64,000 bases of DNA from an uncultured Chitinophaga sp. (lineage in GTDB: Bacteria; Bacteroidota; Bacteroidia; Bacteroidales; GCA-2748055). A model generated the notes under the pieces. That model searched no databases and had not been told where the DNA came from. It was given only the letters and a program-made list of their open reading frames with translations. The position numbers and the translations under genes are program-made. Position 1 is the stretch's first letter; each line of letters opens with the position of its first letter. This document shows positions 8,867-50,865 of this stretch, piece after piece. The stretch lies in the NCBI GenBank assembly GCA_964404825.1, contig CAYOLQ010000007.1:2346-66345 (forward strand). Reading direction: 5' to 3'.

Positions 8867-11164
8867 ATGAGCTCAGATGCCTTATTTTGGTTAGTGCCCA
8901 TCGCTTCGATTGCGGCACTTGTATTTGCCTGGTTCTTTTATCAGGATATGATGAAGAACTCTGAAGGAACAGACAGAATGAAAGAAATTGCCCTTTATGT
9001 AAGAGAAGGTGCAATGGCTTACCTGTCAAGTCAGTACAAAGTTGTTGGTAAAGTATTTATTATTTTAGTTCTTATCTTACTTGGACTTGCTTATTTAGGC
9101 GTTCAGAACCCTTTTGTTCCGATAGCTTTTCTTACCGGTGGATTTTTCTCCGGGCTGTGCGGTTACCTGGGTATGAAGACAGCAACAAACGCTTCTGCCA
9201 GAACGGCGCATGGAGCTTCAAAATCACTTAATAAAGGTCTTACTATTGCATTCAGGGCAGGTGCAGTTATGGGTTTGGTTGTTGTTGGATTTGCCGTGCT
9301 TGATATTGCTGCATGGTATCTTTTACTCACCGAAGTTGTTTACACTCCTGAACATATGCAAACCGGTATTCATATGTTTGGATTGAATTTTGTTCATGCC
9401 GGAATTTCTGAACATGAGAAAATGATTGAGATTACAGCTACCATGCTTACCTTTGGTATGGGTGCGTCAACTCAGGCACTTTTTGCACGCGTCGGTGGCG
9501 GTATTTTCACAAAAGCAGCTGACGTAGGCGCTGACCTGGTAGGAAAAGTTGAAGCAGGAATTCCTGAGGATGATCCCAGAAATCCAGCTACCATTGCTGA
9601 TAACGTGGGTGATAACGTTGGTGATGTAGCCGGAATGGGTGCTGACCTTTATGAATCATATGCCGGATCAATTCTGGCAACAGCTGCTCTGGGTGCTGCT
9701 TTACCGGTTATCTCCGACACTAGTCAAACCTCTGCTATTATTGCACCTATGATTGTTGCCGCAGTAGGTATAATATTATCCATTATCGGTATTTTTATGG
9801 TTCGTACAAAAGAATCTGCTTCACAGAAAAGTCTGTTGAACGCTCTTTTGCTGGGAACAGGCGGAAGCTCAGTTTTAATTCTGATTGTTCTTGCTGTTAT
9901 GGCATATTTCAGTATGATTACCTGGGGCGTTTTTGCTGCAGTTGTTTCAGGTTTGGTTGCCGGTGTTATTATCGGTCAGGGAACAGAATATTTTACTTCC
10001 GATGAATACAAACCAACACGTGGTATTGCCGGCCAGACTCTTTCAGGACCTGCAACTACCATTATTGATGGATTGGCTGTAGGGATGTTTTCAACCTGGA
10101 TTCCCGTTGTAACAATCGTTGCCGGTATTCTTGCTGCCTATGGTTTCGCAGGCGGTTTTCATGATTTTGCACAAGGTGTATACGGAATAGGATTCGCTGC
10201 TGTTGGTATGCTTTCAACACTAGGAATTACTCTGGCAACCGATGCATTCGGTCCGATTGCTGACAACGCAGGAGGAAATGCTGAAATGGCTCATCTTCCT
10301 AAAGAAGTAAGGGAAAGAACAGATGCACTCGATATGCTTGGCAATACAACTGCTGCAACAGGAAAAGGTTTTGCAATTGGTTCTGCAGCATTAACTGCTC
10401 TGGCACTTATGGCGGCTTATATCGAGGAGGTAAAACTCTGGATAAGCAAAATCGCCGATAAAACTGATGGTATTATGGAAGTTGGAAATGTTGTTTTCTA
10501 TAATGCAAAGGCAGCTATAATCCCTGTGGCACAGGAAGGACAAAGAGTTGTGATGGTTACTACTGCTAACATTAAAGACTTTACAGAAGCATATGATCTT
10601 ACCCTCTTTAATCCTATGCTGCTCGGCGGTATTTTCCTCGGAGCCATGATGGCCTTTCTTTTTTCTGCGATGGCAATGAAAGCTGTTGGCCGTGCCGCTG
10701 GATCTATGGTTGAAGAAGTAAGAAGACAGTTCAGAGAAATTCCCGGCATTATGGATGGCACTGGTAAACCTGAATACGCAAAATGTGTTGCAATCTCTAC
10801 CAAAGGAGCTCAGAGAGAAATGGTTATTCCTTCATTAATTGCTATTATCGCTCCTATTTCTGTAGGACTTATTTTGGGGGTAGCCGGAGTCGTTGGTCTT
10901 ATTGCAGGTGGACTTACTGCAGGATTCACTCTTGCTTCCATGCTGAATAATGCTGGTGGTGCCTGGGATAACGCTAAAAAATATATCGAAAAAGGAAATC
11001 ATGGCGGAAAGGGAAGCGATGCTCACAAAGCAGCGGTTGTTGGGGACACTGTCGGAGATCCCTTTAAAGATACTGCCGGACCGGCACTTAACATTCTGAT
11101 TAAACTTATGACAATGGTTGCGGTTGTAATGGCCGGACTTACCGTTTCATTCAGTATTTTCTAG
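8867..11164 (+). CDS. hppA: Membrane-bound ion-translocating inorganic pyrophosphatase (K+-stimulated type by motif)
   Basis: 765 aa and polytopic. Canonical motifs are [37 protein letters not shown] and [31 protein letters not shown] carries Ala rather than Lys in the GNTTAA motif, the signature usually linked to K+ dependence. Confidence 0.93.
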
Positions 11165-13136: not shown

Positions 13137-13904
13137 CTATTGTTGTTTGTATGACTTGAGAGAGATGTCATTACCGTTGAAAACAGCATAAGTAAAATTA
13201 AAGAACCAATCCCCGAGACAAATTAGCCGGCTATTATCGTCTAAACGAAAATCCAGAGGCAGATGACGGTGCCCGTAAACAAAGAAATCGAAATGTTCTT
13301 TTTCCAATACCTGCTTTGAGTATAGGATCTGAAATTCTTTATCCTCTCCCTGAAATGGAAGAGAGGCATCTTTAGAAAGCCGGCTGTGCTTCGACCATGC
13401 ATGAGCAAACGCTATTGATGCATTGGGGTGTATTCTTGCAAAAAACCATTGCAGGACTCTGTTTGTGAAAATCCATTTGATAATATTATAAGCTTTCTCA
13501 TATGATCCCAGTCCATCTCCATGAGCAATGAAAAACTTTTTACCGTTAATTTCAATCTTTAAGGGGCTTCTGAAAACCTGTATCCCTGTTTCTGATGGAA
13601 GATAATCAAATACCCACACATCATGGTTCCCGGTGAAAAAGTATACCGGTATTCCGGAATCAGTAATCTCTGCGATTTTGCCAAGTAAACGCGTAAATCC
13701 CCGTGGCACTACCTTGCTGTATTCAAACCAGTAATCAAATATATCTCCAAGCAGGTATATCGAGTGTGCGTCTGTTTTTGCCTCATCCAGCCAACGGGTA
13801 AGCATTTTTTCCCTGATAAGACTTTTTTCAAGGGGTGGATGCCCCAGATGAGCATCAGAGAGAAAATAAATTTTTTTATTTGCGGGCAATTGTAATTGGT
13901 TCAT
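13137..13904 (-). CDS. lpxH: UDP-2,3-diacylglucosamine diphosphatase
   Basis: 255 aa with calcineurin-like metallophosphoesterase motifs in LpxH order: LSDAHLG, LGDIFDYWFEY, TGNHDVW, IAHGDG, YGHRHLP. Its ATG overlaps the stop of the upstream gene (ATGA at 13902-13906). Confidence 0.88.
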   Translation of the reverse strand: MNQLQLPANKKIYFLSDAHLGHPPLEKSLIREKMLTRWLDEAKTDAHSIYLLGDIFDYWFEYSKVVPRGFTRLLGKIAEITDSGIPVYFFTGNHDVWVFDYLPSETGIQVFRSPLKIEINGKKFFIAHGDGLGSYEKAYNIIKWIFTNRVLQWFFARIHPNASIAFAHAWSKHSRLSKDASLPFQGEDKEFQILYSKQVLEKEHFDFFVYGHRHLPLDFRLDDNSRLICLGDWFFNFTYAVFNGNDISLKSYKQQ

Positions 13905-15058
13905 CAGAGTTTATTATCGAGCCATTTTTCGAGTTCTGTTCCATATAGATTACGTGCCAAAATGTTCCCCTCTTTATCAAGGAGGTAAGTAGAAGGTATA
14001 GAACGCATATTGTAAGCGAATGCTGACTGAGAATCGGGGAAATCCGGTCCGATGGTATTGATAAAACTAAGTTCATCAAAACGAACTAATTTCATCCAGT
14101 TTTCAGGGTTTTTATCAACGCAAACAGCAAAAATTTCAAACCCTTTGCTTTTGTATTTTCTGTAAATTTTTTCAAAAAGCGGATTCTGTTGTTTGGATGC
14201 ATCAGAATATACTGACCAGAAATATAATAAAACAGTTTTCCCTCTCAGAGTTGAGAGACTTTTTATATTTCCTGCGGGATCGGGATAGGAGATATCGGGC
14301 AAGCCGCTTTGAGATTCAATAATTTTCTTCTGAATACCTATAAGATTATTGTATCTTTTTTCCGCGGTACGGGCATCATTAACAAAGGTCTTCACAAAAG
14401 ATGACGTGGGATACTTAACTGATAAGGTATCTGCAACGATTTTCATATACTGAATATCCCTGTTTTCACCAAGAACGAGCTCATCCGGACCAAGCTTTTG
14501 ATACAACGCGTACGCACTCGCGATTGAAGAAAGATGTTCAACAATAAATGAAATTGAAAAATCCCTCTGTTCCTTAATAATTTCCTTTCTCCGAATAAGG
14601 TATTCACTTGCCTGAACTTCAGTAAGAGCATTATTGCCCCTATATTTACTGTCAAGGTCCTTCAACCTGGTTCGTGTATCACTTAACTTTTCCACAAGTT
14701 GTCTGACAAATTCAGATTCCGGAGATCCCGTTACACTATAATTCTTATCGAATTCCTGAAAGTCACCGTCAATTTTAATTTTTTCACCGGGAGAAATAAA
14801 AAGGTTAATAATTTTCCCGCTTTCGTTTCTGAGAATATACAATCCGGGTTCCTCAACAAATAATTTGAAACGAAATTTGCCATCTTTTTTCACTCCTGCC
14901 GAATCTATCTGACTGGTTTTGTTAATGTCAAGATACTCGAGCTTTATGGAGTATTTTTCAGTGTTTCTGAATGATCCTTCAACGATTGCATTTGGCCTGT
15001 CTTTGCATGATACAGCAGCAAAAGCTACTAAGGCAAATATTAGAATTCTCTTTTTCAT
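13904..15058 (-). CDS. TlpA/ResA-like thioredoxin-fold lipoprotein with N-terminal DUF4369-like domain; CXXC motif absent
   Basis: It has a lipobox (FAAVSC). The C-terminal thioredoxin fold (KTVLLYFWSVYSDASKQQNP...KGFEIFAVCVD) has W-S-V-Y-S-D-A-S (14195-14218) where its paralog has W-C-Q-P-C. The tracked first codon (15061) is a TTG, so the ATG at 15058 is preferred. Confidence 0.75.
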   Translation of the reverse strand: MKKRILIFALVAFAAVSCKDRPNAIVEGSFRNTEKYSIKLEYLDINKTSQIDSAGVKKDGKFRFKLFVEEPGLYILRNESGKIINLFISPGEKIKIDGDFQEFDKNYSVTGSPESEFVRQLVEKLSDTRTRLKDLDSKYRGNNALTEVQASEYLIRRKEIIKEQRDFSISFIVEHLSSIASAYALYQKLGPDELVLGENRDIQYMKIVADTLSVKYPTSSFVKTFVNDARTAEKRYNNLIGIQKKIIESQSGLPDISYPDPAGNIKSLSTLRGKTVLLYFWSVYSDASKQQNPLFEKIYRKYKSKGFEIFAVCVDKNPENWMKLVRFDELSFINTIGPDFPDSQSAFAYNMRSIPSTYLLDKEGNILARNLYGTELEKWLDNKL

Positions 15059-15064
15059 CAAAAA

Positions 15065-16261
15065 TTATTCATTAAAAAGTTCCTGTAATTTTTCACCAAG
15101 TGCCGGACCCCGAAGATTGCTGGCAATAACCTTTCCGTCTTTATCCAGAAGGTAATTCATAGGGATTCCCTGGATATTAAATTGAGCAACAACCCCAGAT
15201 TCCCAATATTTGAGTTCGCTTACCTGGGTCCAGCCAAGATTATCCTGCTCTATTCCATTTACCCATTCTTCGCGGGTTCTGTCGAGGGAGACCTGATAAA
15301 TCTCAAAACCTTTTTTGTTGAATTGCTTATAGTTTTCAACCAGATTCGGATTTTCAAGTCTGCAAGGCTGACACCACGCTGCCCAGAAGTCAAGCAATAC
15401 AATCTTTCCTCTAAGGGATGACAATCTGATTATTTTTCCATCGGGGGAGGGAAGGGATATTTCCGGAACCTCAGTTCCCGGAGCAAAAGTACCCGGAGTG
15501 GTTTGCTGCTGTGCTGCCAGCTGTGCTTTAATTACAGTCACATACTCATGCAGACTTTGCACCAGCGGAAGATCAGGATATTTTGCGTTCAGAGAGGAAT
15601 CTAATTTTTCATATACCTCAAGATCCTTAACCGGATGAAATACCATCATTTGTGGTCCAACCTGTCCGTAGAGGGCAAGCAGACTGATAAGTGAGTTTGA
15701 ATTTTCATTAATAAAACTTAACGAATAAGTCCTGAGATCTTCCAACAAAGTCTGGAATTCTTCGTTATTCTTTACCCTGATATCTGCATAGTTTGGGCTT
15801 TCTGAGCTGTCTCTGGCCATGATATTAAATTTATCCATAGCTGAGATTAGTTTGTTGGTTTCAATGTTAAGCAGCCTGATCTTTTCAGATTCATCGGATC
15901 CTGATACTTTATAATCCTCCAGGTTGTTGTAGTCAGCTGTAATCTTTATTTTCTCTTTACCATAAATCAGGAGATTTATGAATGGGCCACCTTCAGTCCT
16001 TACTATAAAAAATTCGGGTAACTGGGTCGATTCCCGGAAAGAAAACACACCATTTTCGTCAAGGATTATGGTGTCAAGAGAGATAAACTTATCAATACCA
16101 ATTTTCTGAAAGTAAACTGCACGACCTGTACTGTTTTCAAGCTTTCCTTCAACGGTAAATTTATGAGCTTTTCCGGAAATCTTATTTTCATTTCCTTTTT
16201 TCCCGCAGGAAACTAAAAAAAAGCCTGCCAAAAACACAAATAGGAATATTGAACTTTTCAT
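15065..16261 (-). CDS. TlpA-family thiol:disulfide oxidoreductase lipoprotein (intact CXXC) with N-terminal DUF4369-like domain
   Basis: It has a lipobox (FFLVSC). Thioredoxin motif KIVLLDFWAAWCQPCRLENP has its CXXC at 15362-15373. It is paralogous along its whole length to the downstream gene. Confidence 0.8.
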   Translation of the reverse strand: MKSSIFLFVFLAGFFLVSCGKKGNENKISGKAHKFTVEGKLENSTGRAVYFQKIGIDKFISLDTIILDENGVFSFRESTQLPEFFIVRTEGGPFINLLIYGKEKIKITADYNNLEDYKVSGSDESEKIRLLNIETNKLISAMDKFNIMARDSSESPNYADIRVKNNEEFQTLLEDLRTYSLSFINENSNSLISLLALYGQVGPQMMVFHPVKDLEVYEKLDSSLNAKYPDLPLVQSLHEYVTVIKAQLAAQQQTTPGTFAPGTEVPEISLPSPDGKIIRLSSLRGKIVLLDFWAAWCQPCRLENPNLVENYKQFNKKGFEIYQVSLDRTREEWVNGIEQDNLGWTQVSELKYWESGVVAQFNIQGIPMNYLLDKDGKVIASNLRGPALGEKLQELFNE

Positions 16262-16632: not shown

Positions 16633-18588
16633 ATGGGATATCTACAATTCGAAAAGAGTAAGTTGATTAATCTTGAATACTCGCTGGACAAGGAATTTGT
16701 AAGATCGAACCGTGCTGGTTCATATTCCTCAACTACTATTGTTGGATGTAATACCAGGAAATATCATGGTATGCTTGTTGTCCCGGATGCTGTTAGCGGG
16801 GATAAAAATGTGCTTTTATCTTCTCTGGATGTTACAATTGTGCAGCATGATCAGGAGTTTAATCTTGGCATTCATAAGTATCAGGGGGATCTGTATGTTC
16901 CGAGAGGGCACAAATATGTCCGCGATTTTGAAGCTGAAAGTGTCGGGGTAACAACCTACAGGGTGGGAGGTGTCGTTTTAAAGAAAGAATATTTGCTTGT
17001 TGAAAAAGAAGAACAGATACTTATTAAATATACCCTTGAAGAGGCAACCTCGCCCACTTTTTTAAAGTTCAAACCTTTCCTTGCTTTCCGGAGCATGCAC
17101 TCTTTAAGCAAAGCAAACTTATATGCCAATACCAAGTATCAGGTAGTTAAAAATGGCATCGTTTCTAAGTTATATGATGCCCTCCCTTCACTTTATATGC
17201 AGTTTAATAAGGAAGTGGAATTTATATCCTGTCCCGACTGGTACTACAATATCGAATACATGGAGGAACAAAAAAGAGGCTATGACTTTAAAGAAGATCT
17301 TTTTGTTCCCGGCTATTTCGAATGCTCCATTAAAAAAGGAGAAAGTATAATCTTCTCCGGAAATACAATACTTGCAGAAGAACCTGAGTCTCTTGTCAGG
17401 AAATATGAAAAAGAAAAGGCTAAAAGAAATCCCAGGGATAGTTTCAAAAGTTGCCTTATTAATTCTGCAGAACAATTTCTGGTAAAAAACGAGGGCAGAA
17501 CAGAAATTATTGCGGGATTTCCCTGGTTCGGAACATGGGGCAGAGATACTTTCATTTCCCTTCCGGGAATCACCCTTACAACCGGGAAACTGCAACAGGC
17601 TAAAGATATTATCGATACAATGGTAAAAAGGATGAAAGGCGGGCTTTTTCCCAACATGGGTAACAATGAGAATCCTGCTTTCAATTCAGTTGATGCTCCT
17701 TTATGGTTTTTCTGGTCACTCCAGGAGTACCAGAAATATGACTCCGTACTTGATATTTGGGAAACCTACAAAGCCCCAATTAATGATATTCTGAATTCCT
17801 ATCGGAACGGTACAATATTCAATATCCGTATGCTTGAAAACGGTTTGATATGGGCTGGTCAGGAAGGTAAATCACTGACCTGGATGGACGCAATAAACGA
17901 TCAGGGTCCTGTGACCCCACGTATGGGCATGGATGTGGAAATTAATGCGCTATGGTACAATGCGGTGTGTGCTTGTCTTGAATGGGCAAAAAAATCCAAA
18001 GACAGCAAGTTTATCAAAAACTGGAAAGATCTGCCCGAAAAAATCAGTCAGTCTTTTATTGAAACCTTCTGGGATGAGAAAAAAGGATATCTGGCTGATT
18101 ATGTAAATGGTGATTTTAAGGATTTCAGCGTAAGGCCGAATCAGGTTTTTGCTGCAGCTCTGCCTTATAGTCCGATTTCGAGAGACATGAAAAAAAGTGT
18201 AGTTGATATTATTACCCGTTACTTATTAACTCCTAAAGGTCTCCGGACCCTTTCACCAAAGGATGAAAAGTATAATCCCTGTTATGAAGGAAATCAGAAT
18301 ACAAGAAACTCCGCCTACCATCAGGGAACAGTATGGCCATGGCTATTGGAACATTATGTAAAAGCTTACCTGGATTTGCACAAAGCAGGAGGCTTGAACA
18401 CGGTTAAACAACTTTTCCATGGTTTTGAAGAGGATATGCTGGTGCATGGAATTGGATCCATTTCTGAAATATATGATGGAGATCCGCCTCACACACCCAG
18501 AGGTTCAATTTCTCAGGCCTGGAGTGTTGCGTCAGTATTACGGATAGGTGAAATAATTGAAAAATTTGAATCAGAAAAAACAATTTAA
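16633..18588 (+). CDS. Glycogen debranching enzyme (N-terminal GDE domain + amylo-alpha-1,6-glucosidase, GH133-like)
   Basis: 651 aa. The N-terminus MGYLQFEKSKLINLEYSLDKEFVRSNRAGSYSSTTIVGCNTRKYHGMLV is typical of bacterial GDE_N proteins. The C-terminal (alpha/alpha)6-type region includes GFPWFGTWGRDTFISLPG and AYHQGTVWPWLLEHY. Confidence 0.85.
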   Translation: MGYLQFEKSKLINLEYSLDKEFVRSNRAGSYSSTTIVGCNTRKYHGMLVVPDAVSGDKNVLLSSLDVTIVQHDQEFNLGIHKYQGDLYVPRGHKYVRDFEAESVGVTTYRVGGVVLKKEYLLVEKEEQILIKYTLEEATSPTFLKFKPFLAFRSMHSLSKANLYANTKYQVVKNGIVSKLYDALPSLYMQFNKEVEFISCPDWYYNIEYMEEQKRGYDFKEDLFVPGYFECSIKKGESIIFSGNTILAEEPESLVRKYEKEKAKRNPRDSFKSCLINSAEQFLVKNEGRTEIIAGFPWFGTWGRDTFISLPGITLTTGKLQQAKDIIDTMVKRMKGGLFPNMGNNENPAFNSVDAPLWFFWSLQEYQKYDSVLDIWETYKAPINDILNSYRNGTIFNIRMLENGLIWAGQEGKSLTWMDAINDQGPVTPRMGMDVEINALWYNAVCACLEWAKKSKDSKFIKNWKDLPEKISQSFIETFWDEKKGYLADYVNGDFKDFSVRPNQVFAAALPYSPISRDMKKSVVDIITRYLLTPKGLRTLSPKDEKYNPCYEGNQNTRNSAYHQGTVWPWLLEHYVKAYLDLHKAGGLNTVKQLFHGFEEDMLVHGIGSISEIYDGDPPHTPRGSISQAWSVASVLRIGEIIEKFESEKTI

Positions 18589-18602: not shown

Positions 18603-19889
18603 ATGAAGGTATTGATGTTCGGTTGGGAATTTCCACCACATATTTCAGGTGGCCTTGGAACTGCTTCTTATGGTCTTACCAAAGGAATGAGCAAAATCCC
18701 CGGAATGCAAATAAAATTTGTCGTTCCAAAAGCATATGGAGATGAAGACCAAAGCCGCATGCGGATTGTAGGTGCAAATGATATAGTTATAAGCAAAAGA
18801 CTTGTAAATTATGAGTCATTCCTTAGAGAAATTGAGTATGTTGAAATTAATTCCAGAATTGTTCCCTATACCGATCCTGATGAATATTACACAGCCGTAA
18901 AAGAAGCTAAAGAAGAAGGACGACCATTTATCTATACAAATTTCAGGGGGAAAATCCCCTTTACCGGAAAATATGGAGGAAATCTGTATCAGGAGATAGC
19001 TAATTATGCAGTGATAGCATCTGTTCTGGCTGAAGAAAACGATTTTGATGTAATACATGCACACGACTGGCTTACTTTCCCTGCCGGAATTGCAGCTAAG
19101 AGAGTTTCAGGAAAACCATTGGTAATACATGTTCATGCTACCGATTTCGATCGAAGCGGAGGAAGTGTTAATCCTGCTGTATTCGATATAGAAATGAAAG
19201 GAATGAGGAATGCGGATAAAATTATAGCAGTTTCCAATCTCACTCGAAACACAATCATTGAGAAATATGGGATCAGTCCGGATAAAGTTGTAACAGTTCA
19301 TAATGCCGTTGAGCCTCTGCAAGAGTCTGAAAAACTAATGCTGGGGAAAAATATTAATGATAAGATTGTAACATTTTTAGGAAGAGTTACCTTACAAAAA
19401 GGACCTGAATATTTTGTTGAGGCAGCATACAAAGTCCTTCAGAAAATGGATAATGTTCGTTTTGTCATGGCTGGTAGCGGGGAATTGCTGAACCGTATGA
19501 TTATGCGTGCAGCATCTTTGCGGATTGCAAATAAATTCCACTTTACGGGATTCTTAAAAGGAGATGATGTATACCGAATGTTTTCAATAAGTGATGTTTA
19601 TGTTATGCCTTCTGTTTCTGAGCCTTTTGGGATTTCACCCCTCGAAGCCATGCAATCAAATGTTCCGGTAATCATATCTCACCAGTCCGGAGTTTCTGAA
19701 GTATTGCAATACGCTATGAAGGTTGATTTCTGGGATATTGACGCTATGGCTGATGCAATTTATGGATTGCTTAACTACAGCGCTTTGTCGGATATGTTTA
19801 AAATCTATGGAAAGGAAGAAGTTGAGAATATGAAATGGGAAAACTCGGCAATTAAAGTAAATGAAGTATATCATTCAGTTGTAAAATAA
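18603..19889 (+). CDS. GT-B retaining glycosyltransferase (GT4/GT5-like, putative alpha-glucan synthase)
   Basis: 428 aa. The N-terminus MKVLMFGWEFPPHISGGLGTA resembles archaeal-type glycogen synthases. The C-terminal Glycos_transf_1 motif is VMPSVSEPFGISPLEAM. Confidence 0.7.
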   Translation: MKVLMFGWEFPPHISGGLGTASYGLTKGMSKIPGMQIKFVVPKAYGDEDQSRMRIVGANDIVISKRLVNYESFLREIEYVEINSRIVPYTDPDEYYTAVKEAKEEGRPFIYTNFRGKIPFTGKYGGNLYQEIANYAVIASVLAEENDFDVIHAHDWLTFPAGIAAKRVSGKPLVIHVHATDFDRSGGSVNPAVFDIEMKGMRNADKIIAVSNLTRNTIIEKYGISPDKVVTVHNAVEPLQESEKLMLGKNINDKIVTFLGRVTLQKGPEYFVEAAYKVLQKMDNVRFVMAGSGELLNRMIMRAASLRIANKFHFTGFLKGDDVYRMFSISDVYVMPSVSEPFGISPLEAMQSNVPVIISHQSGVSEVLQYAMKVDFWDIDAMADAIYGLLNYSALSDMFKIYGKEEVENMKWENSAIKVNEVYHSVVK

Positions 19890-19914: not shown

Positions 19915-21360
19915 ATGAGAACAATATGTTTATACTTTCAGATTCACCAGCCTTTCCGGTTCAGGAAATATCGTTTTTTTGATATTGGCAGCGAGCATTA
20001 TTATTACGACGATTACATGAACGAAAGCATCATGAGAAAAGTCGCTGATAAGTGTTATTTGCCTGCAAATAAAATTATGCTGGATCTGATCAAAAAGCAT
20101 GAGGGTAAGTTTAAAATTGCTTTTTCTATTTCAGGAACTGCTATTGACCAGTTTGAACTTTATGCACCTGAGGTTATTGATAGTTTTAAAAAATTGGCTA
20201 ATACCGGATGTGTCGAATTCCTGTCTGAAACCTATTCTCATAGTTTAGCCTCCCTTTCAAATCGCGAAGAATTCGAAAAGCAGGTAGTTAAACATAAATT
20301 AAAAATAAAGGAGCTTTTTAAAACAGAACCTGTTGTTTTCAGAAATACTGAATTAATCTATTCCGATCAAATTGGAGCAATGGTTGCCGATATGGGTTAC
20401 AAAGCCATGATTACTGAAGGCGCCAAGCATGTTCTGGGATGGAAGAGCCCAAATTTTCTGTATTATAATGCTATTAATCCTAAACTTAAGGTATTATTGA
20501 AAAACTTCAAGCTCAGCGATGATATTGCTTTTCGTTTCTCCAATAAATCATGGGCAGAATATCCCCTTACAGCTGAAAAATTTGTTTCATGGATTAAGGC
20601 CATAGATAAAAACGAGGAAACAGTGAATCTTTTTATGGATTACGAAACATTTGGAGAACATCAGTGGGCTGAGACAGGAATTTTTGAGTTTCTTAAAGCT
20701 CTTCCTTCCGCTGTATTTAAAAGTACCAAGTTTAAGTTCAGTACCCCTTCTGAGGTAGTTAATACCCTTCAACCCGTTGCACCCGTTCATGTACCCCATG
20801 CAATATCCTGGGCTGATGAGGAAAGAGATCTCACTGCCTGGCTGGGTAATGAACTCCAATGGCAGGCATTTGGAAAGCTTTATGAACTGCAGGAAAAGGT
20901 GAAAATTGCCAATGACTCAAAACTGCAAAAAGACTTTGAGTATTTCCAGGTAAGTGATCATTTTTACTATATGAGCACAAAATTTTTCTCTGATGGTGAA
21001 GTCCACTCATACTTTAATCCTTATGATAGCCCATACGATGCTTTTATAAATTATATGAATATTCTAAGTGATTTTGAAATACGATTAAACAGTCTTCAAT
21101 CAGATGATAGCAATTTCGAAGTGAATCGGCTAAGTAAATTGCTGAAAGAAAAAGAAGAATTAATAATACAATACGCTAATCAGCTTAATACTGCAGGGAA
21201 AGTTAAGAAAACCTCACAGAAAATACCGGTGAGCGTTGGAACGACTAAAAAAGCTGTTAATAAGAAAAGTCAGGTAAAGGAACCCGGTACAAAAAAAAGT
21301 TCTCCGGTTCAAAAGCAGGATTTTAAGAAAACCACAAAACCAAGGGGTGGTAAAAAATAA
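19915..21360 (+). CDS. GH57-family alpha-glucan-active enzyme with Lys-rich C-terminal tail
   Basis: 481 aa. CLYFQIHQPFRFRKY and MDYETFGEHQW are GH57-type motifs. The last ~55 aa are KVKKTSQKIPVSVGTTKKAVNKKSQVKEPGTKKSSPVQKQDFKKTTKPRGGKK. Confidence 0.8.
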   Translation: MRTICLYFQIHQPFRFRKYRFFDIGSEHYYYDDYMNESIMRKVADKCYLPANKIMLDLIKKHEGKFKIAFSISGTAIDQFELYAPEVIDSFKKLANTGCVEFLSETYSHSLASLSNREEFEKQVVKHKLKIKELFKTEPVVFRNTELIYSDQIGAMVADMGYKAMITEGAKHVLGWKSPNFLYYNAINPKLKVLLKNFKLSDDIAFRFSNKSWAEYPLTAEKFVSWIKAIDKNEETVNLFMDYETFGEHQWAETGIFEFLKALPSAVFKSTKFKFSTPSEVVNTLQPVAPVHVPHAISWADEERDLTAWLGNELQWQAFGKLYELQEKVKIANDSKLQKDFEYFQVSDHFYYMSTKFFSDGEVHSYFNPYDSPYDAFINYMNILSDFEIRLNSLQSDDSNFEVNRLSKLLKEKEELIIQYANQLNTAGKVKKTSQKIPVSVGTTKKAVNKKSQVKEPGTKKSSPVQKQDFKKTTKPRGGKK

Positions 21361-21383: not shown

Positions 21384-24300
21384 ATGATTAAAGAAAGAAT
21401 TAGTCCCAATTATTTATTCGAAGTCAGCTGGGAAGTTTGTAATAAAGTGGGTGGTATTCATACTGTTATTTCAACAAAAGCACTAACACTGCTTAAAGAA
21501 TTTGGTGATAAGTATATTTTACTTGGTCCCGATGTCTGGCGCGATGAAGCCGAACATCCGGAGTTTAACGAAGACCCGAACCTTCTTGCCGGATGGAGGC
21601 AGCAAGCTGCGGTTGAAGGACTGCGTGTGAGGGTGGGTAGATGGAAAATTGCCGGACGACCTTTGGTAATTCTTGTGGATTTCACCACCTTTTTCGCAAG
21701 TAAAGATCAAATATATAGTAAGCTATGGGAAACGTATAAACTCGATTCAATCTCTGGTCAGTGGGATTATATTGAACCTACTTTATTTGGATATGCCACC
21801 GGACAGGTAATTGAAAGTTATTGTAAGTACCACCTCACCCCAAGTGATAAAATAATCGCTCAGTTTCATGAATGGATGACCGGAGCAGGTCTGCTCTATT
21901 TACGTGATGTTCTTCCTCAGGCCGGTACAGTGTTTACAACTCACGCAACTGTCATTGGACGATCCATTGCCGGAAATCTTCTCCCTCTGTATAGCAAAAT
22001 GAAGGAATATAACGGAGATGTGAAGGCAACAGAGTTTAACCTGGCTGCTAAACAATCCATTGAAAAAATATCTGCACGTTATGCCGATGCTTTTACTACA
22101 GTAAGCGAACTTACAGCGCATGAATGTGAACAGTTTTTGCAAAAAGAGGTTGATCTGGTAACCCCAAACGGCTTTGAAGATGGTTTTGTACCCGACCATG
22201 CAAGCTTTAATTCCAAGCGCAAAGCAGCCAGAAAGAAAATTCTTGAAGTTGCCGGAGCCTTGCTTGGTGAGACGTTTGGAGATGATACCTTTCTGGTGGC
22301 AAACAGCGGTAGATACGAGTTTAAAAATAAGGGAATCGACCTTTTTGTTGACTCTCTTGGAAAGCTTAAACAAGGAAATTCATTAGATAAAACGCTCCTT
22401 GCATTTATACTTATTCCGGCAAATCATTACGGTCCGCGTAAAGACCTTCTTGAAAAACTCGAAGGTAAGGCTGTTGAAATTATTGGTGAAAATTATCTGA
22501 CACATAATCTGCATTATGCAGAAAGCGATCCAAGCCTGAGCCGAATTAAAGCTGCCGGAATCAATAATCAGAAAGGCGATAGTGTCCGGGTCATATTCGT
22601 ACCATCATACCTTAATGGTTTTGACGGGATCTTTAATAAGGAGTATTACGAACTGCTCATAGGTTTTGATCTTACCGTTTTCCCTTCTTATTACGAGCCA
22701 TGGGGGTATACCCCGCTTGAAAGTCTTGCATTCCATATCCCAACCATTACTACAAGCCTTGCAGGTTTTGGACTCTGGGTAAGAGATAATTATAAAGATC
22801 CCGGTAACGGAATTTTTGTAATAAACCGGGATGATTATAATGACGCGGAAGTGGTAGATGGCATATGTGAAGCCATCCGCATTATGGATTCTCTTCCCCC
22901 AAAAGCGTTAAAAGAAGCCCGGGATAAGGCATTTGACATTTCACGTATAGCTTTGTGGACGAATCAGGTTGATTATTATTATAAAGCATTTGATGTTGCC
23001 CTGACCAAAGTGATGGAACGTGTCGACACATTTGTTGAACACGAAAGAGTTGAACAATTGCCTCAGATAGAGGTTAATCTGGGAGCCACTCCTGTTTGGA
23101 AAAGAGTTATTGTTCAGCAAAGTTTACCTGAAAATTTGCAAGCACTTGAAGAATTAAGTAAAAATCTTTGGTGGTGCTGGAATCAGGATGCAATTGAACT
23201 TTTTAAATCTATTGATCCGTCATTATGGAAAGAAACTGCTGAAAATCCTGTTGAGCTTTTGGAAAGAATTCCGTTTAACAGGCTTGATAATCTTCATAAA
23301 GATAAAGAATTCTTATCACGCCTCCTGAGCGTACATAACCATTTTACTGCCTATATGTCTGAGAAACCTAAAGAAGGTCCTACAGTAGGCTACTTTAGCA
23401 TGGAGTTTGGTTTGCACGATTCACTTAAGATATATTCCGGAGGACTTGGCCTTCTTGCCGGTGATTACCTCAAAGAGGCAAGTGATTATAATTACAAAAT
23501 AATAGGAATTGGATTTCTCTACCGGTATGGGTATTTTAAACAGCTTATGTCTGTTGCCGGCGAACAATTATCAGTAACAGAGAAGCAGGTTTTTTCAAAA
23601 ACACCTGCGCAGCCAGTTTTTGAAGAAAACGGAGATTTCAAGAAAATCCGTATAGTGTTACCCGGCCGCGACTTAATTGCACGTATCTGGCAGGTAAATG
23701 TTGGCAGGGTTAAGCTGTTTCTTCTTGATACGGATATCGATGAGAATCAGGAAAGTGATCGCTCCATTACTCATCAGTTATATGGAGGGGATAATGAAAA
23801 TCGTCTCAAGCAGGAAATACTTCTTGGAATTGGTGGAATCAGGGCATTGAGGGCACTTGGGCTGGAACCGGATATTTATCATTGCAATGAAGGACATGCC
23901 GCCTTTATTGGACTTGAAAGATTACGTGAGTATATTCAACTCAAAAATCACACTTACCCCGAAGCACTCGAGATTGTAAGGTCTTCCTCTTTGTTTACAA
24001 CTCACACACCTGTACCTGCTGGACATGATTATTTTAGTGAGGATCTTATGCGTGCATATATTGCTCATTATCCTACGCGTCTCAAAATTACCTGGAACCA
24101 ACTGATGAATCTGGGAAAAATGCATCCGAACTCGGGAAGCGAAAAGTTCTCAATGAGTTGCCTTGCTGTTAATCTTTCTCAGGAAGTTAACGGAGTCTCC
24201 AGACTTCATGGAAAAGTAAGCAGGGATATGTTTGCCGATATGTGGAGCGGATACCTTACAGAGGAAATACCTATTGGTTACGTAACAAACGGAGTTCATA

Positions 24301-25625
24301 TTCCCACCTGGATCTCAAAAAGATGGAAAGAGCTTTATCATCAGGAACTCGATTCGGAGTTTTACAAAAAGCAGGACGACCGCTCGATGTGGGCAAAAAT
24401 AAACAATGTCGATCAGGCTGTAATCTGGAATATCAAGAATCAGGAAAGGAAAGATCTCATTGATTTTATTAATGACGCAATTGTTTCAAACTCTCTTAAA
24501 TCATACGAAGATCCCCGAACCATTGTAGAAATTCAGGAGAAGCTTAACCCCAATGCACTGACAATAGGTTTTGCCAGAAGATTTGCTACCTACAAAAGGG
24601 CGCACCTGCTTTTCATGGATCTCAAAAGATTAGCTGAAATAGTGAATAATCCGTTTATGCCGGTTCAGATATTTTTTGCCGGTAAAGCGCATCCTCAGGA
24701 CAAGATGGGGGCTGACCTGATAAAAATGATTGTTGAGATCTCCCGGAAACCCGAATTTATTGGAAAAATTCTTTTTCTGCCCGGATACGAAATTGCACTG
24801 GCAAAAAAACTTTTGCACGGCGTTGATATATGGATGAATACTCCTACACGACCTCTTGAAGCTTCGGGCACCAGTGGAGAGAAGGCAGTTATGAACGGAG
24901 ATCTCCATTTTAGTGTCCTTGACGGCTGGTGGGCAGAAGGATACAAAAAGGATGCCGGCTGGGCTTTAGATGAAGAAAGAGCCTATGATAATCAGACATT
25001 TCAGGATCAGCTTGATGCCGAGACTATCTATAACCTTATTGAATCGGAAATTACACCCGCATTCTACAAGCGCGATTCACGAGGAGTTCCAACGGCCTGG
25101 GTAAGCATGATACAGAAATCGATTACCGAAGTGTGTCCGGAATTTACTATGAACCGTCAGTTGCAGGATTATATAAAGCAATATTATGAGCCCTTGTACA
25201 AAAGGACACTGAAAATGAGGGAGAAGGATTATGATTTGGCCTCCGTTATTGCTTGCTGGAAAAAGAAGATCCTCAATTCATGGAATGATATTGAAATTGT
25301 ATCGATTAATTATCCTCAGATGGATAACCAGATAGTCTGCCTTGGTAATCATTATTTTTCCAAAATTGTTCTGGATCTTAAATCATTAAGATCTGAAGAA
25401 ATTGGGGTTGAACTTGTTGTTGCTGAATTGGAAACAAAAAGCAAAAAGCCCCAAATCCTCGAGAAGAAGGAGTTTATCTTTACCAGTAAGGAGGGATCGA
25501 AAGCTACTTATGAAATCGAATTCTCACCAACCAAACCCGGGATTTTCGATTTTGGAATCAGAATTTATCCGAAGAACAAACACCTTGCACACAGGCAGGA
25601 ATTGCCACTTCTGCGCTGGATATAA
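21384..25625 (+). CDS. Fusion protein: GT3 (eukaryote-type) glycogen synthase + DUF3417/GT35 alpha-glucan phosphorylase
   Basis: 1413 aa in one uninterrupted frame. The N-terminal half has LFEVSWEVCNKVGGIHTVISTKA and FPSYYEPWGYTPLES (GT3). From about aa 570 come LWWCWNQDA, YFSMEFGLHDSLKIYSGGLGLLAGDYLKEASD and EASGTSGEKAVMNG (GT35). The putative PLP lysine codon is at 24882-24884. Confidence 0.85.
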   Translation: MIKERISPNYLFEVSWEVCNKVGGIHTVISTKALTLLKEFGDKYILLGPDVWRDEAEHPEFNEDPNLLAGWRQQAAVEGLRVRVGRWKIAGRPLVILVDFTTFFASKDQIYSKLWETYKLDSISGQWDYIEPTLFGYATGQVIESYCKYHLTPSDKIIAQFHEWMTGAGLLYLRDVLPQAGTVFTTHATVIGRSIAGNLLPLYSKMKEYNGDVKATEFNLAAKQSIEKISARYADAFTTVSELTAHECEQFLQKEVDLVTPNGFEDGFVPDHASFNSKRKAARKKILEVAGALLGETFGDDTFLVANSGRYEFKNKGIDLFVDSLGKLKQGNSLDKTLLAFILIPANHYGPRKDLLEKLEGKAVEIIGENYLTHNLHYAESDPSLSRIKAAGINNQKGDSVRVIFVPSYLNGFDGIFNKEYYELLIGFDLTVFPSYYEPWGYTPLESLAFHIPTITTSLAGFGLWVRDNYKDPGNGIFVINRDDYNDAEVVDGICEAIRIMDSLPPKALKEARDKAFDISRIALWTNQVDYYYKAFDVALTKVMERVDTFVEHERVEQLPQIEVNLGATPVWKRVIVQQSLPENLQALEELSKNLWWCWNQDAIELFKSIDPSLWKETAENPVELLERIPFNRLDNLHKDKEFLSRLLSVHNHFTAYMSEKPKEGPTVGYFSMEFGLHDSLKIYSGGLGLLAGDYLKEASDYNYKIIGIGFLYRYGYFKQLMSVAGEQLSVTEKQVFSKTPAQPVFEENGDFKKIRIVLPGRDLIARIWQVNVGRVKLFLLDTDIDENQESDRSITHQLYGGDNENRLKQEILLGIGGIRALRALGLEPDIYHCNEGHAAFIGLERLREYIQLKNHTYPEALEIVRSSSLFTTHTPVPAGHDYFSEDLMRAYIAHYPTRLKITWNQLMNLGKMHPNSGSEKFSMSCLAVNLSQEVNGVSRLHGKVSRDMFADMWSGYLTEEIPIGYVTNGVHIPTWISKRWKELYHQELDSEFYKKQDDRSMWAKINNVDQAVIWNIKNQERKDLIDFINDAIVSNSLKSYEDPRTIVEIQEKLNPNALTIGFARRFATYKRAHLLFMDLKRLAEIVNNPFMPVQIFFAGKAHPQDKMGADLIKMIVEISRKPEFIGKILFLPGYEIALAKKLLHGVDIWMNTPTRPLEASGTSGEKAVMNGDLHFSVLDGWWAEGYKKDAGWALDEERAYDNQTFQDQLDAETIYNLIESEITPAFYKRDSRGVPTAWVSMIQKSITEVCPEFTMNRQLQDYIKQYYEPLYKRTLKMREKDYDLASVIACWKKKILNSWNDIEIVSINYPQMDNQIVCLGNHYFSKIVLDLKSLRSEEIGVELVVAELETKSKKPQILEKKEFIFTSKEGSKATYEIEFSPTKPGIFDFGIRIYPKNKHLAHRQELPLLRWI

Positions 25626-25628
25626 ATA

Positions 25629-27647
25629 TCAGGGAGTGTCGTACACTCCCTTAATTTTTTCCTTCTTCAATACAAGAGCCGTACGTGAAGGAAGGTATAA
25701 TCTGAGGTGATTTCCCGGTAAACCTACCTTGCCGGAGAGAGTACGATAGCTTATAGTATGATCAATACGACCCTGACCACCAAAAATTATATCATCAGTA
25801 TCCAATACTATCTTGTATTTTGAGGGAGAAGCATTTAAACCGTAATCAGGGTATGAATGTACCGGACTGAAATTAAAGGCAAAATACATATCATCCCTCT
25901 CAAATCCCAATACCTGACCATTTTGGTTATCATGAAATAGTCTGGGAGATTCTCCCCTGAAAATGTGACTTTTACGAAATAGTCTGATCATTTGCCTGTC
26001 GAATTCATCAAGAAAGCCAAAGCGCAGAAGTTTATTGCTTGCCAGACTCCACTGCCGGCGGGCATATTGGTAGGACCAGTTATTTCCTAACCGTGGGAAA
26101 TCAATCCATTCAGGATGTCCGAATTCATTCCCCATAAAATTGAGATAGCCGTTTCCTGAAGTTGCAAGAGTAAGTAAGCGTATCATTTTATGGAGGGCAA
26201 TTCCGCGGTCGACTTCCAGATTTCGGGAAAGTTTATCCATACTGAAATACATCTCTTTACCAATAAGTCTGAAGATTATTGTCTGATCGCCTACCAGCGC
26301 CTGATCATGTGATTCAGCATATCCTATAGTTTTTTCTTCAACCCTTTTATTTGTGAGTTCGTAATACATTTCACTTACATTCCATTTTTCATCTGCCTTC
26401 TCTTTGATTATCCTAATCCAGTAATCTGGTGTACCCATAGCCATCCGGTAATCAAAGCCCAGACCACCATCAGTTAATTTTGCAGCAAGACCAGGGTATC
26501 CCGACATTTCCTCAGCAATTGAAAGAGCTTCAGGATCATTCTCATGTATAAGTGCATTTGCAAGACCAAGGTAACAGATGGCATCCTCATCCTGATTATT
26601 GTCGAAATACATACTATAGTTCGTAAAATCACGGCTCAGCCCATGATCGTAATAAAGCATAGAAGTGACTCCGTCGAATCGAAAACCATCGAATCGGTAC
26701 TCTTTTTGCCAGAATTGAATGTTGGATAAGAGAAAATGAAGCACCTCATGTTTTCCATAGTTGTAACAAAGCGAATCCCATGCAACATGTTCCCTCTTTG
26801 CTCCGGTATGAAAAAATTGCCAGGGAGAACCATCATAGAGTCCAATGCCTTCATTCTCGTTTCTGACAGCGTGAGAGTGCACAAGGTCCATGATTACTCT
26901 TAATCCGGCGCCATGAGCTTCGTCAATCAGTGCCTTAAGTTCTTCAGGCTCTCCGAAACGGGAGGATGCAGCGAACAAACTGGATACATGGTAACCGAAG
27001 GAACCATAATATGGGTGTTCCTGCACGGCCATCAATTGCAAAGTATTATAGCCGGCTTCTATTACCCGCGGAAGCACTTTTTCCCTGAATTCTTTGTATT
27101 GTCCTACCTTGAAATCTTCGGTAGCCATTCCCACATGGGCTTCATAAATAAAAGGAGGATCATTTTTTAATGGGGCTGAAAATTTCCATTTGAATTCTGT
27201 TTCAGGAAACCACACCTGGGCGGAAAAAAGTTTAGTCTCATCGTCCTGCACAGTGCGCATGGCGTAGGCTGGTATTCGTTCACCATGCCCGCCTGACCAA
27301 TGCATAGAGAGTTTGTATAAATCCTTATGATGAATTTGTTCCGGTTTAAGCAGTAGTTCCCAGTTGCCGTTTTCGAGTCGGGAGAAACGGAATGCATCCG
27401 ATTCTTTCCATTTGTTGAAATCACCGATAAGATAAATTTCAGTTGCATTTGGTGCCCATTCTCTGAAAACCCAATCGCCGGAAATACGGTGGAGTCCGAA
27501 ATACAAATGTCCAGTGGCAAATGAAGAAAGCCTTGCCTCTCCGGCAAGTTCTTCTTTCTTTTGCTGTACTCTTTTCATCCTCTCCTGAATGACTTGAGTA
27601 TACTGTCCAAGCCAGGAGTCTGATTTTACAATACCGGGTACCTTCAT
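25629..27647 (-). CDS. 1,4-alpha-glucan branching enzyme, eukaryote-like GH13 type with N-terminal CBM48-like domain
   Basis: 672 aa. The GH13 conserved regions are DLVHSHAVRN, GFRFDGVTSMLY, IAEEMSGYPG and YAESHDQALVGD, the pattern I associate with the eukaryotic/Bacteroidota GBE subfamily rather than E. coli GlgB. Confidence 0.85.
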   Translation of the reverse strand: MKVPGIVKSDSWLGQYTQVIQERMKRVQQKKEELAGEARLSSFATGHLYFGLHRISGDWVFREWAPNATEIYLIGDFNKWKESDAFRFSRLENGNWELLLKPEQIHHKDLYKLSMHWSGGHGERIPAYAMRTVQDDETKLFSAQVWFPETEFKWKFSAPLKNDPPFIYEAHVGMATEDFKVGQYKEFREKVLPRVIEAGYNTLQLMAVQEHPYYGSFGYHVSSLFAASSRFGEPEELKALIDEAHGAGLRVIMDLVHSHAVRNENEGIGLYDGSPWQFFHTGAKREHVAWDSLCYNYGKHEVLHFLLSNIQFWQKEYRFDGFRFDGVTSMLYYDHGLSRDFTNYSMYFDNNQDEDAICYLGLANALIHENDPEALSIAEEMSGYPGLAAKLTDGGLGFDYRMAMGTPDYWIRIIKEKADEKWNVSEMYYELTNKRVEEKTIGYAESHDQALVGDQTIIFRLIGKEMYFSMDKLSRNLEVDRGIALHKMIRLLTLATSGNGYLNFMGNEFGHPEWIDFPRLGNNWSYQYARRQWSLASNKLLRFGFLDEFDRQMIRLFRKSHIFRGESPRLFHDNQNGQVLGFERDDMYFAFNFSPVHSYPDYGLNASPSKYKIVLDTDDIIFGGQGRIDHTISYRTLSGKVGLPGNHLRLYLPSRTALVLKKEKIKGVYDTP
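25631..25660 (+). terminator. Rho-independent terminator of the glycogen operon, embedded in the 3' coding end of the convergent branching-enzyme gene
   Basis: agggagtgt (25631-25639) pairs with acactccct (25643-25651). The stem is 9 bp with a 3-nt loop and is followed by taatttttt. It starts 6 nt after the TAA at 25623-25625. Confidence 0.7.
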
Positions 27648-50783: not shown

Positions 50784-50865
50784 GCGGGTGTGGCGGAATT
50801 GGTAGACGCGCCAGACTTAGGATCTGGTACCGCAAGGTGTGGGGGTTCGAGTCCCTTCATCCGCA
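50784..50865 (+). tRNA. tRNA-Leu (anticodon TAG), CCA not encoded
   Basis: Hand-folded cloverleaf of 82 nt. The acceptor stem is gcgggtg/catccgc (one G-U) and the D-arm is gcg-gaattggtaga-cgc. The anticodon stem is ccaga/tctgg with loop cTTAGga. It also has a long variable arm (taccgcaaggtgt), T-arm ggggg-ttcgagt-ccctt and discriminator A. Confidence 0.85.

Follow-up and report, generated by a model that had tools for sequence, protein, structure and literature searches.

We found that a single gene in the window (the whole stretch of 64,000 nucleotides that was analyzed) encodes a GT3 glycogen synthase joined to a GT35 alpha-glucan phosphorylase (Table 1). The fusion is a real single gene and not an assembly artefact. 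Its architecture is already known: it is named in KEGG and IMG and is widespread. Sequence comparisons are most consistent, with a probability of roughly three in four, with a bifunctional glycogen-bound enzyme of the KEGG K16153 type in which both halves are active and loosely tethered.

Under this reading, the GT3 half would transfer glucose from a sugar nucleotide onto non-reducing alpha-1,4 chain ends. The GT35 half, with pyridoxal phosphate (PLP) and phosphate, would take glucose off the same ends as glucose-1-phosphate. The main effect of the fusion would be co-expression, 1:1 stoichiometry and co-localization on the glycogen particle; it is reasonable, given the covalent arrangement, that both activities would act on one particle. 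Net direction would be set by the levels of UDP-glucose, phosphate, glucose-1-phosphate and AMP (the last acting on the phosphorylase half). The eukaryotic switch based on phosphorylation and glucose-6-phosphate would play no part, as its elements are missing.

Because synthase and phosphorylase work against each other at the same chain ends, a natural covalent pair would be a clean system for studying how bacteria avoid or exploit futile glycogen cycling, a process documented for rumen bacteria (PMC4432691).

Table 1. Positions of the fusion gene, its parts and its neighbors in the window
Feature	Coordinates (nt)	Strand	Description or evidence
Whole fusion ORF	21384..25625	+	ATG start, 1413 aa plus stop; GT3 joined to GT35
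GT3 glycogen synthase module, aa 10-547	21411..23024	+	Glycogen_syn profile, GYS1 alignment, GYS1/Gsy2p fold match
E-X7-E motif, E438...E446 (= GYS1 E510/E518)	22695..22721	+	Alignment of relatives
Inter-module tether, aa 548-577	23025..23114	+	pLDDT ~35; Bacteroidales E-R-V-E-x-L-P motif, then P-x-W-K
Alpha-helical domain DUF3417, aa 581-681	23124..23426	+	Pfam DUF3417, 115.6 bits
GT35 catalytic core, aa 669-1270, TIGR02094 'alpha-glucan family phosphorylase'	23388..25193	+	TIGR02094; ScGP 9l6i ~52% identical
Codon of K1167, predicted PLP Schiff-base lysine (= ScGP K609)	24882..24884	+	Conserved in 111/111
C-terminal beta-sheet domain, ~aa 1290-1413 (GlgP_C, PF28476 in newer Pfam)	25251..25622	+	ScGP alignment; clade-2 feature
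GH133 amylo-alpha-1,6-glucosidase (GDE_N + GDE_C), 651 aa	16633..18588	+	Synteny in related loci
GT4 glycosyltransferase, 428 aa	18603..19889	+	Synteny in related loci
GH57 enzyme, 481 aa	19915..21360	+	Ends 23 nt 5' of the fusion start codon; synteny
Cluster gene next after the fusion	25629..27647	-	Adjoins in ~29/80 related loci

Integrity and distribution of the fused gene

The only stop codon in the fusion ORF is the terminal one. The GT3 module is followed by a tether of ~30 aa and then by a clade-2/TIGR02094 GT35 module (aa 578-1413). Public data contain a 1413-aa protein 99% identical to the window's fusion. Identity to the 120 best database matches was 58-99%, and nearly all of these were ~1400-1433 aa long (a few incomplete entries were shorter). 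At the 80 best species-representative genome loci, we found an open frame of at least 1380 aa in 78; one of the two exceptions ends at a contig edge and the other has a single frame break. GC content was similar in the two halves of the gene (0.415 in the first and 0.407 in the second). The initial annotation had described one polypeptide, and these results bear it out. Its domain calls (GT3, DUF3417-like and GT35) were correct, based on the Glycogen_syn, DUF3417 and TIGR02094 profile scores, and the motifs lie where it had placed them: EVCNKVGGIHTV (aa 17-28, nt 21432-21467) and FPSYYEPWGYTPLES (aa 433-447, nt 22680-22724) in the GT3 half, and EASGTSGEKAVMNG (aa 1159-1172, nt 24858-24899, including K1167) in the GT35 half.

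The fused architecture is common in Bacteroidota and extends to Planctomycetota, Desulfovibrionaceae and Acidobacteriota. Among Bacteroidales of the gut and rumen (e.g., Alistipes, Muribaculaceae, Rikenellaceae and Dysgonomonas), members of the family are abundant. K16153 is defined as 'glycogen phosphorylase/synthase [EC 2.4.1.1 2.4.1.11]', as quoted in PMC8307300 and PMC11017998, and IMG product names match ('glycogen phosphorylase/synthase'). The window's protein shares this architecture, with GT3 preceding GT35 in one polypeptide, and is collinear with members over its full length. The newness implied by the initial annotation is therefore not upheld. That annotation had also allowed that the architecture might already be biochemically characterized; we found no paper characterizing a fused synthase-phosphorylase in the literature searched. 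The protein is common yet uncharacterized, and its NCBI name, 'alpha-glucan family phosphorylase', by itself conceals the synthase half.

The fusion gene is part of a glycogen cluster that synteny in related loci shows to be conserved, in the order GH133 debrancher, GT4, GH57, fusion, GH13 branching enzyme. Among proteins of solved structure, the cluster GT4 is most closely related to the maltose-1-phosphate synthase GlgM and to archaeal GlgA.

The two halves are also found as separate genes. In Prevotellaceae-like genomes, GT3 and phosphorylase are encoded by neighboring genes in the same order. In a collinear split pair, a GT3 of 559 aa is followed after 17 nt by a phosphorylase of 858 aa that is ~80% identical to ScGP, the phosphorylase of Segatella copri; the boundary between the two genes lies within the tether. 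In an organism closely related to S. copri, the synthase gene lies directly upstream of the phosphorylase gene. A crude tree gave 10 parsimony changes, which suggests repeated fission or loss.

Active sites of the two halves

The N-terminal half is a GT3 enzyme by its score of 313.9 bits against Pfam PF05693 Glycogen_syn (cut-off 27). It falls outside bacterial GlgA (GT5, TIGR02095), with 36.9 bits against a cut-off of 328.45. Two Rossmann domains make up the module (AlphaFold pLDDT ~90), which aligns to residues 28-384 and 444-620 of human GYS1. The catalytic set of a retaining GT-B enzyme is present (E438, E446, R310, K316, H187, R193 and Y442, the last equivalent to GYS1 Y514), as are the uridine-stacking positions L343, Y409 and Y421. 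K21, G23, H187, R193, R310, K316, Y421, E438-PWGY and E446 (in the same order, GYS1 K39, G41, H205, R211, R331, K337, Y493, E510-Y514 and E518) were kept in 108-111 of 111 relatives; E438 was kept in 110 and E446 in all 111.

In the GYS1 alignment, the GT3 half had no counterpart of GYS1 385-443 (the stretch of tetramerization-domain helix alpha16) and no N- or C-terminal phospho-regulatory tails. At the glucose-6-phosphate/arginine-cluster site, GYS1 H501 is replaced by D429, R582 is deleted, R579 is variable and only R586 is kept (R513). The half thus does not have the set of tetramerization domain, glucose-6-phosphate site and phospho-tails that marks eukaryotic regulatory-type GT3 enzymes. 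PMC7935935 describes a UDP-glucose-dependent synthase in Prevotella bryantii, a species without glgC. By analogy with that synthase and with eukaryotic GT3, the sugar donor is most likely UDP-glucose.

The GT35 half scored 826.2 bits against NCBIfam TIGR02094 over aa 669-1270 (cut-off 191.7), and the Pfam Phosphorylase profile gave 106 bits. It is related to, and not a member of, the NF041129 equivalog (Thermococcales maltodextrin phosphorylase; 728.8 bits against 1500). The DUF3417 match and an alignment that reaches the last residue of ScGP place it in clade 2, a feature of which is an extra C-terminal beta domain (PMC12912991). PF28476 GlgP_C is listed for fusion homologues and for the split-form phosphorylase. 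All 111 relatives kept K1167, H874, R1065, R1066, K1071, Y1070 and E836 (in the same order, ScGP K609, H316, R507, R508, K513, Y512 and E278), which include the proximal AMP-site residues E836, Y1070 and R1066. K1167 is the lysine that had initially been proposed to bind PLP, and its conservation agrees with that proposal.

According to PMC12912991, ScGP is active without a synthase, and its pentamer, in whose assembly the helical domain takes part, wraps glycogen and is regulated by oligomerization. The same source reports that AMP inhibits ScGP rather than activating it and induces decamers. By analogy, the fused protein probably oligomerizes through its phosphorylase helical domain. AMP inhibition, if shared by the fusion, would leave the regulatory logic of a synthase-phosphorylase pair puzzling, and this counts against our main explanation. 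The 2026 ScGP structures provide a framework for half of the fusion protein, and studies of stand-alone ScGP may address half of a functional pair.

We also compared 27 divergent fusions, with identities of 34-57% in GT3 and 32-59% in GT35. The two halves had similar evolutionary rates. The catalytic residues were almost always kept; single sequences had R310E, E438Q, R1066D or K1071S, one each. In the alignment with the 111 relatives, no essential catalytic residue was lost from either half of the window's protein. Judged by these alignments, each half has an intact active site, and the constraint on the two is comparable.

The tether and the relation between the halves

A linker had been placed at nt ~23000-23100 by the initial annotation. 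It is present there, and we refined its limits to nt 23025-23114: the GYS1 match ends at aa 547, the ScGP match begins at aa ~563-568, and the AlphaFold low-confidence stretch, predicted to be disordered, covers aa 548-577. The E-R-V-E-x-L-P motif is Bacteroidales-specific and is kept in close relatives; the P-x-W-K that follows belongs to the phosphorylase N-terminal loop. In distant fusions having 34-50% GT3 identity, the tether differed in length and was 7-23% identical. The conservation of E-R-V-E-x-L-P in Bacteroidales counts against loose tethering, as a linker with a purely passive role could do without such a motif. The AlphaFold model of a two-module 1200-aa construct had a pTM of 0.75, against a rough expectation of ~0.5 for freely tethered modules. 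The halves may thus prefer a certain position relative to each other, a hint that goes beyond the needs of the loose-tether explanation.

These features might instead reflect a coupled 'glycogen metabolon', with the synthase docked in a defined way on an ScGP-like phosphorylase pentamer. Effector-driven changes in oligomer state (e.g., AMP-induced decamers) would gate both activities reciprocally, and a complex that is non-covalent in split-gene species would have been made covalent by the fusion. We regard this as possible but doubtful. By Rosetta-stone logic, the collinearity of fused and split forms, the latter with a gap of only 17 nt, argues for physical interaction. The GT3 half no longer has its own tetramerization domain or most of the glucose-6-phosphate site, so it may rely on the partner for assembly and regulation. 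The pTM, the tether motif conserved in Bacteroidales and the glycogen-wrapping, oligomerization-regulated ScGP pentamer (PMC12912991) point the same way. However, the tether, for which disorder is predicted, lacks sequence conservation between phyla; ScGP assembles and functions on its own (same source); and the halves exist as separate genes elsewhere, apparently through repeated fission or loss. Intramolecular reciprocal regulation, an option in the initial annotation, may operate, but a tether variable in sequence and length and probably disordered, halves in separate genes and an ScGP active alone do not demonstrate tight coupling.

Somewhat less probable is that fused and split pairs report an unrecognized synthase-phosphorylase holoenzyme, in which five minimal GT3 modules, without oligomerization or glucose-6-phosphate control of their own any longer, sit on an ScGP-like pentamer around the glycogen particle. 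One effector-driven oligomer change (e.g., to AMP-induced decamers) would turn the particle from growth to breakdown and back, or would control how fast glycogen is cycled. If this were true, bacteria would have a form of reciprocal control fundamentally unlike the kinase/phosphatase system of animals.

We think it unlikely that the phosphorylase half mainly builds maltooligosaccharide from glucose-1-phosphate or trims chains, another option in the initial annotation, and so primes the GT3 half. To our knowledge glycogenin is not found in bacteria, and eukaryotic GT3 cannot self-prime; the GT3 half would therefore need a primer. Cellular phosphate, however, normally tips the balance to phosphorolysis, and the conserved cluster GT4, a GlgM/GlgA relative, could serve for priming just as well. 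Eukaryotic GT3 synthases do need a glycogenin-made primer (PMC11046441). ScGP catalyzes the reverse reaction with good affinity for glucose-1-phosphate, but with a kcat far below that of other phosphorylases (PMC12912991).

That one half is catalytically dead and merely anchors the other to glycogen, as the initial annotation had allowed, is very improbable. The four singleton substitutions suggest that occasional degenerate members may exist elsewhere. This role is nonetheless disfavored because the catalytic and cofactor residues that were checked in the two halves show little or no variation among the window's protein and its 111 relatives and are largely kept in the 27 divergent fusions, and the halves evolve at like rates. 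Finally, although other lineages do have gene pairs with a 17-nt gap, an assembly or frameshift error that merged two neighboring genes is ruled out by the frame open in 78/80 independent loci, and the typical homologue length (~1411 aa), the even composition and a fused tether that carries ~12 additional in-frame residues rather than spacer read-through also speak against it.

Comparison with known systems

The ~1400-aa Bacteroidota proteins of K16153 and IMG have the same module order, length (1400-1448 aa) and gene neighborhood as the window's fusion. We found no material difference, and the window's protein is an ordinary member of this group.

ScGP (PDB 9L6I, 20YR) is ~52% identical, end to end, to the C-terminal 850 aa of the fusion. 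The PLP lysine and the catalytic and proximal AMP-site residues are identical, and the helical domain and extra C-terminal beta domain are common to both. In contrast, ScGP is a stand-alone protein of 852 aa, and the window's GT35 module has a synthase covalently attached at its N-terminal end.

Eukaryotic GT3 enzymes (human GYS1, yeast Gsy2p) share with the GT3 half the GT-B fold (TM up to 0.82), the E-X7-E motif and the residues that bind the UDP diphosphate and glucose, at 26-29% identity in structure-based alignments. The position of their C-terminal tail is occupied in the fusion by the tether and phosphorylase.

TreS-Mak/Pep2 and Neisseria GlgB-MalQ, from bacterial alpha-glucan metabolism, likewise unite covalently two enzymes that belong to a single glucan pathway and have separate genes elsewhere (PMC11046441). 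Those proteins join consecutive steps in the same direction, whereas the window's fusion combines reactions that oppose each other at shared chain ends.

A single reading frame with two modules

We found that the fusion of a GT3 glycogen synthase to a clade-2 GT35 phosphorylase is one ORF, with an ATG start, 1413 codons and a single terminal stop. In the checked translation, the motifs quoted in the initial annotation lie where it had placed them, and codon 24882-24884 encodes K1167, the predicted PLP lysine. Matches to Glycogen_syn, DUF3417, Phosphorylase and TIGR02094 all fall in this frame, bearing out the description of a single polypeptide with both halves. The scores were 313.9 bits for Pfam Glycogen_syn, 115.6 bits for Pfam DUF3417 (aa 581-681) and 106 bits for Pfam Phosphorylase. 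The NCBIfam profile TIGR02094, named 'alpha-glucan family phosphorylase', matched aa 669-1270 with 826 bits, greatly exceeding the cut-off of 191.7. Neither the bacterial GlgA (GT5) profile nor that of the maltodextrin phosphorylase equivalog of Thermococcales reached its cut-off with this protein.

The N-terminal module (aa 10-547) aligned to residues 28-384 and 444-620 of human glycogen synthase (GYS1). The C-terminal module, from aa ~563-568 to 1413, aligned end to end with ScGP, the stand-alone glycogen phosphorylase of Segatella copri, at ~52% identity. The AlphaFold prediction for aa 1-1200 drew on 111 sequences. Both modules were confidently predicted (model mean pLDDT 83, pTM 0.75), and the tether between them (aa 548-577) had a pLDDT of ~35. 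A PDB fold search gave a match for each module on its own, one to ScGP and the other to eukaryotic glycogen synthases (TM up to 0.82), and no solved structure spanned both.

The frame is a real fusion rather than the product of a missed stop or frameshift. Public data already contain a 1413-aa protein that is 99% identical to it. Nearly all of the best 120 database matches are ~1400-1433 aa long and span the full query with 58-86% identity; truncated entries are few. A scan of species-representative genomes yielded at least 596 confirmed GT3-containing loci. The best 80 of these all match query residues ~1-1413, and 78 of the 80 have an unbroken frame of at least 1380 aa. Of the two exceptions, one runs off its contig and the other contains one frame break. 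GC content is unchanged over the synthase/phosphorylase junction. A search for an internal start for a separate phosphorylase found none at the position where the phosphorylase of split forms begins, and M544 is not conserved. The sole related locus with a broken fusion frame (L051, 3-3860; longest open frame 1120 aa) could be a pseudogene or a MAG assembly error.

Active-site residues and the tether

We compared both halves with residue roles published for human GYS1 (PMC9287172) and ScGP (PMC12912991). The synthase donor and acceptor set (K21, G23, H187, R193, R310, K316, Y421, E438-P-W-G-Y and E446) is kept in 108-111 of 111 relatives. In the phosphorylase half, K1167, H874, R1065, R1066 and K1071 are kept in all 111, as are the proximal AMP-site residues E836 and Y1070. 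The catalytic residues are also retained, with isolated exceptions only, in 27 far more divergent fusions, whose synthase halves share 34-57% identity with that of the window protein and whose phosphorylase halves share 32-59%. This retention in both halves argues against a dead 'anchor' half. The evidence best supports a bifunctional enzyme whose halves, both predicted to be active, are joined by a flexible tether. The initial annotation was right about the fusion, and its interpretation is partly supported; its option of a non-catalytic, glycogen-anchoring half is disfavoured.

Among the distant fusions (e.g., P0169 and P0176), R310E, E438Q, R1066D and K1071S each occur in one sequence, and the LWWSW motif is degenerate in some. 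Judged by these substitutions, such proteins may represent lineages with one degenerate half. Two labels in the GYS1 paper, His287 and Arg311, read F and H in the aligned GYS1 chain and were left uninterpreted; the mismatch is probably a numbering slip in the paper or a fault of our own alignment in a gapped stretch. The other labels (H291, E292, Q294, K301, R331, K337, E510 and E518) agree with the chain.

Among close Bacteroidales relatives, the connector is nearly constant in length and has an E-R-V-E-x-L-P motif. In fusions of other lineages the connector shares 7-23% identity, and its length differs by between roughly -12 and +18 residues. We rejected the motif as a general docking element, since it is missing from fusions of other phyla. 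The P-x-W-K downstream of the tether is part of the N-terminal loop of the phosphorylase, and stand-alone ScGP has it too.

Gene neighbourhood and distribution

Four closely spaced genes run in the same direction, the fusion coming last (see table). The GH133-GT4-GH57 trio adjoins it in 50 of 80 related loci, most of the others ending early at contig ends, and a branching enzyme is often adjacent in this set. In the window, 3 nt separate the stop codons of the fusion and the branching enzyme gene (25623-25631), so there is no intergenic space for a shared terminator.

The nearest solved relatives of the GT4 protein are the maltose-1-phosphate synthase GlgM (6tvp) and archaeal GlgA, and it also matches the starch-synthase N-terminal domain profile. 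The protein could form primers or act as a second alpha-glucan synthase. According to a 2024 review (PMC11046441), it is unclear what such GT4s do in archaeal glycogen gene clusters. The GH57 protein had no solved relative at E <= 1e-5, and its C-terminal ~55 aa form a lysine-rich low-complexity tail (…KKTSQKIPVSVGTTKKAVNKKSQVKEPGTKKSSPVQKQDFKKTTKPRGGKK). Neither GalU nor GlgC, sought as clues to the sugar donor, was among the ORFs scanned within the 64-kb window, a stretch too short to show that the genome lacks them. The remaining window is ordinary Bacteroidota chromosome, and the context genes in the table fit this.

Coordinates of the fusion, its neighbours and related loci (window nucleotides unless a locus or protein is named)
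Feature	Location	Strand	Remarks
SprB-repeat protein	142-4887	+	1581 aa; T9SS C-terminal sorting domain
Membrane H+-pyrophosphatase	8867-11164	+	context gene
DUF4369 paralogue	13904-15061	-	thioredoxin-like/AhpC-TSA domains; tandem pair, directly upstream of and divergent from glycogen cluster
DUF4369 paralogue	15065-16261	-	as above
GH133 amylo-alpha-1,6-glucosidase	16633-18588	+	glycogen cluster
GT4 glycosyltransferase	18603-19889	+	glycogen cluster
GH57	19915-21360	+	glycogen cluster
Fusion	21384-25625	+	GT3 and GT35
GH13 branching enzyme	stop codon at 25629		convergent, immediately downstream of fusion
tRNA	50784-50865	+	context gene
Phosphofructokinase	60029-61012	+	context gene
Split pair	L082 10001-14274		also L083, L084; GT3 559 aa, 17-nt gap, phosphorylase 858 aa
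Full-length fusion	P0156, MBO4312014.1		Desulfovibrionaceae MAG
Full-length fusion	P0172, MCZ7606996.1		Planctomycetota MAGs
Full-length fusion	P0186, WP_237377747.1		Sulfidibacter corallicola

The GT3 half alone, searched against 1.84 billion cluster representatives, matched 542 representatives at E <= 1e-30. Of the top 150 (together with four close relatives and the window protein), we tallied the 130 that cover most of the GT3 domain. Phosphorylase sequence follows GT3 in 53 of these 130, and 74 are stand-alone. By source names, fusions occur across many Bacteroidales families. Outside Bacteroidota they were found in Desulfovibrionaceae and Planctomycetota MAGs and in the complete genome of Sulfidibacter corallicola, with GT3 halves 34-39% identical to that of the window protein; this spread could reflect an ancient origin or inter-phylum transfer. 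On a crude neighbour-joining tree, the fused forms lie in the half nearest the window protein, with one coherent stand-alone clade nested among them, and parsimony gives 10 changes of state. This pattern is suggestive only.

The initial annotation had implied that the architecture might be novel, but it is already catalogued and very common. KEGG lists it as K16153, 'glycogen phosphorylase/synthase [EC 2.4.1.1 2.4.1.11]' (PMC8307300, PMC11017998), an entry in routine use in metagenome studies. IMG names ('phosphorylase/glycogen(starch) synthase', 'glycogen phosphorylase/synthase') match it, and the NCBI name is 'alpha-glucan family phosphorylase'. In the literature searched, which took in few subscription journals, we found only lists citing K16153, and none of the papers examined the biochemistry or structure of a fused protein.

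Comparison with ScGP and eukaryotic glycogen synthase

Prevotellaceae-like contigs carry a split form, in which a GT3 gene is followed on the same strand by a DUF3417-Phosphorylase-GlgP_C gene. Its stop and restart lie within the region equivalent to the tether: the stand-alone GT3 ends at ~aa 549 of the fusion and the split phosphorylase starts at ~aa 561. The split phosphorylase matched ScGP with 1552 bits and ~80% identity over the 306 ScGP residues compared, indicating that ScGP is closely related to the downstream member of the split pair. The ScGP paper (PMC12912991) does not mention a synthase partner. In L082, the pair lies between genes for a Na/Ca exchanger and glucosamine-6-phosphate isomerase and not beside GH133, GT4 or GH57.

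It is a possibility that the synthase module docks on a pentamer like that of ScGP and that the two are regulated together. The loss of synthase oligomerisation elements, the collinearity of split and fused forms, and the pTM of 0.75 for aa 1-1200 are hints of such docking. The new ScGP structures now make the fused enzyme tractable.

In such a bifunctional enzyme, selection would favour fusion mainly because the two activities are expressed together, in equal stoichiometry, and are co-localised on glycogen. Metabolites, rather than eukaryote-type phosphorylation or glucose-6-phosphate, would exert control. Rumen bacteria cycle glycogen, and activation of the P. bryantii synthase by fructose-1,6-bisphosphate has been reported (PMC4432691). 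According to a secondary citation in PMC7935935, P. bryantii has no glgC and its synthase is UDP-glucose-dependent. The 2024 review (PMC11046441) nests Bacteroidetes GT3 synthases within DPANN archaeal sequences; its available text does not discuss the fusion.

The synthase half differs from GYS1 in its regulatory elements. GYS1 residues 385-443, which include the tetramerisation helix alpha16 (K429/R430), are replaced by ~9 residues. At the glucose-6-phosphate site, an invariant Asp replaces H501, R582 has been deleted and R579 varies. Both phosphorylated tails, N- and C-terminal, are missing, and the tether and then the phosphorylase take the place of the regulatory C-terminal tail. Therefore, compared with GYS1, the synthase half amounts to a minimal catalytic core that lacks the control elements of the eukaryotic enzyme.
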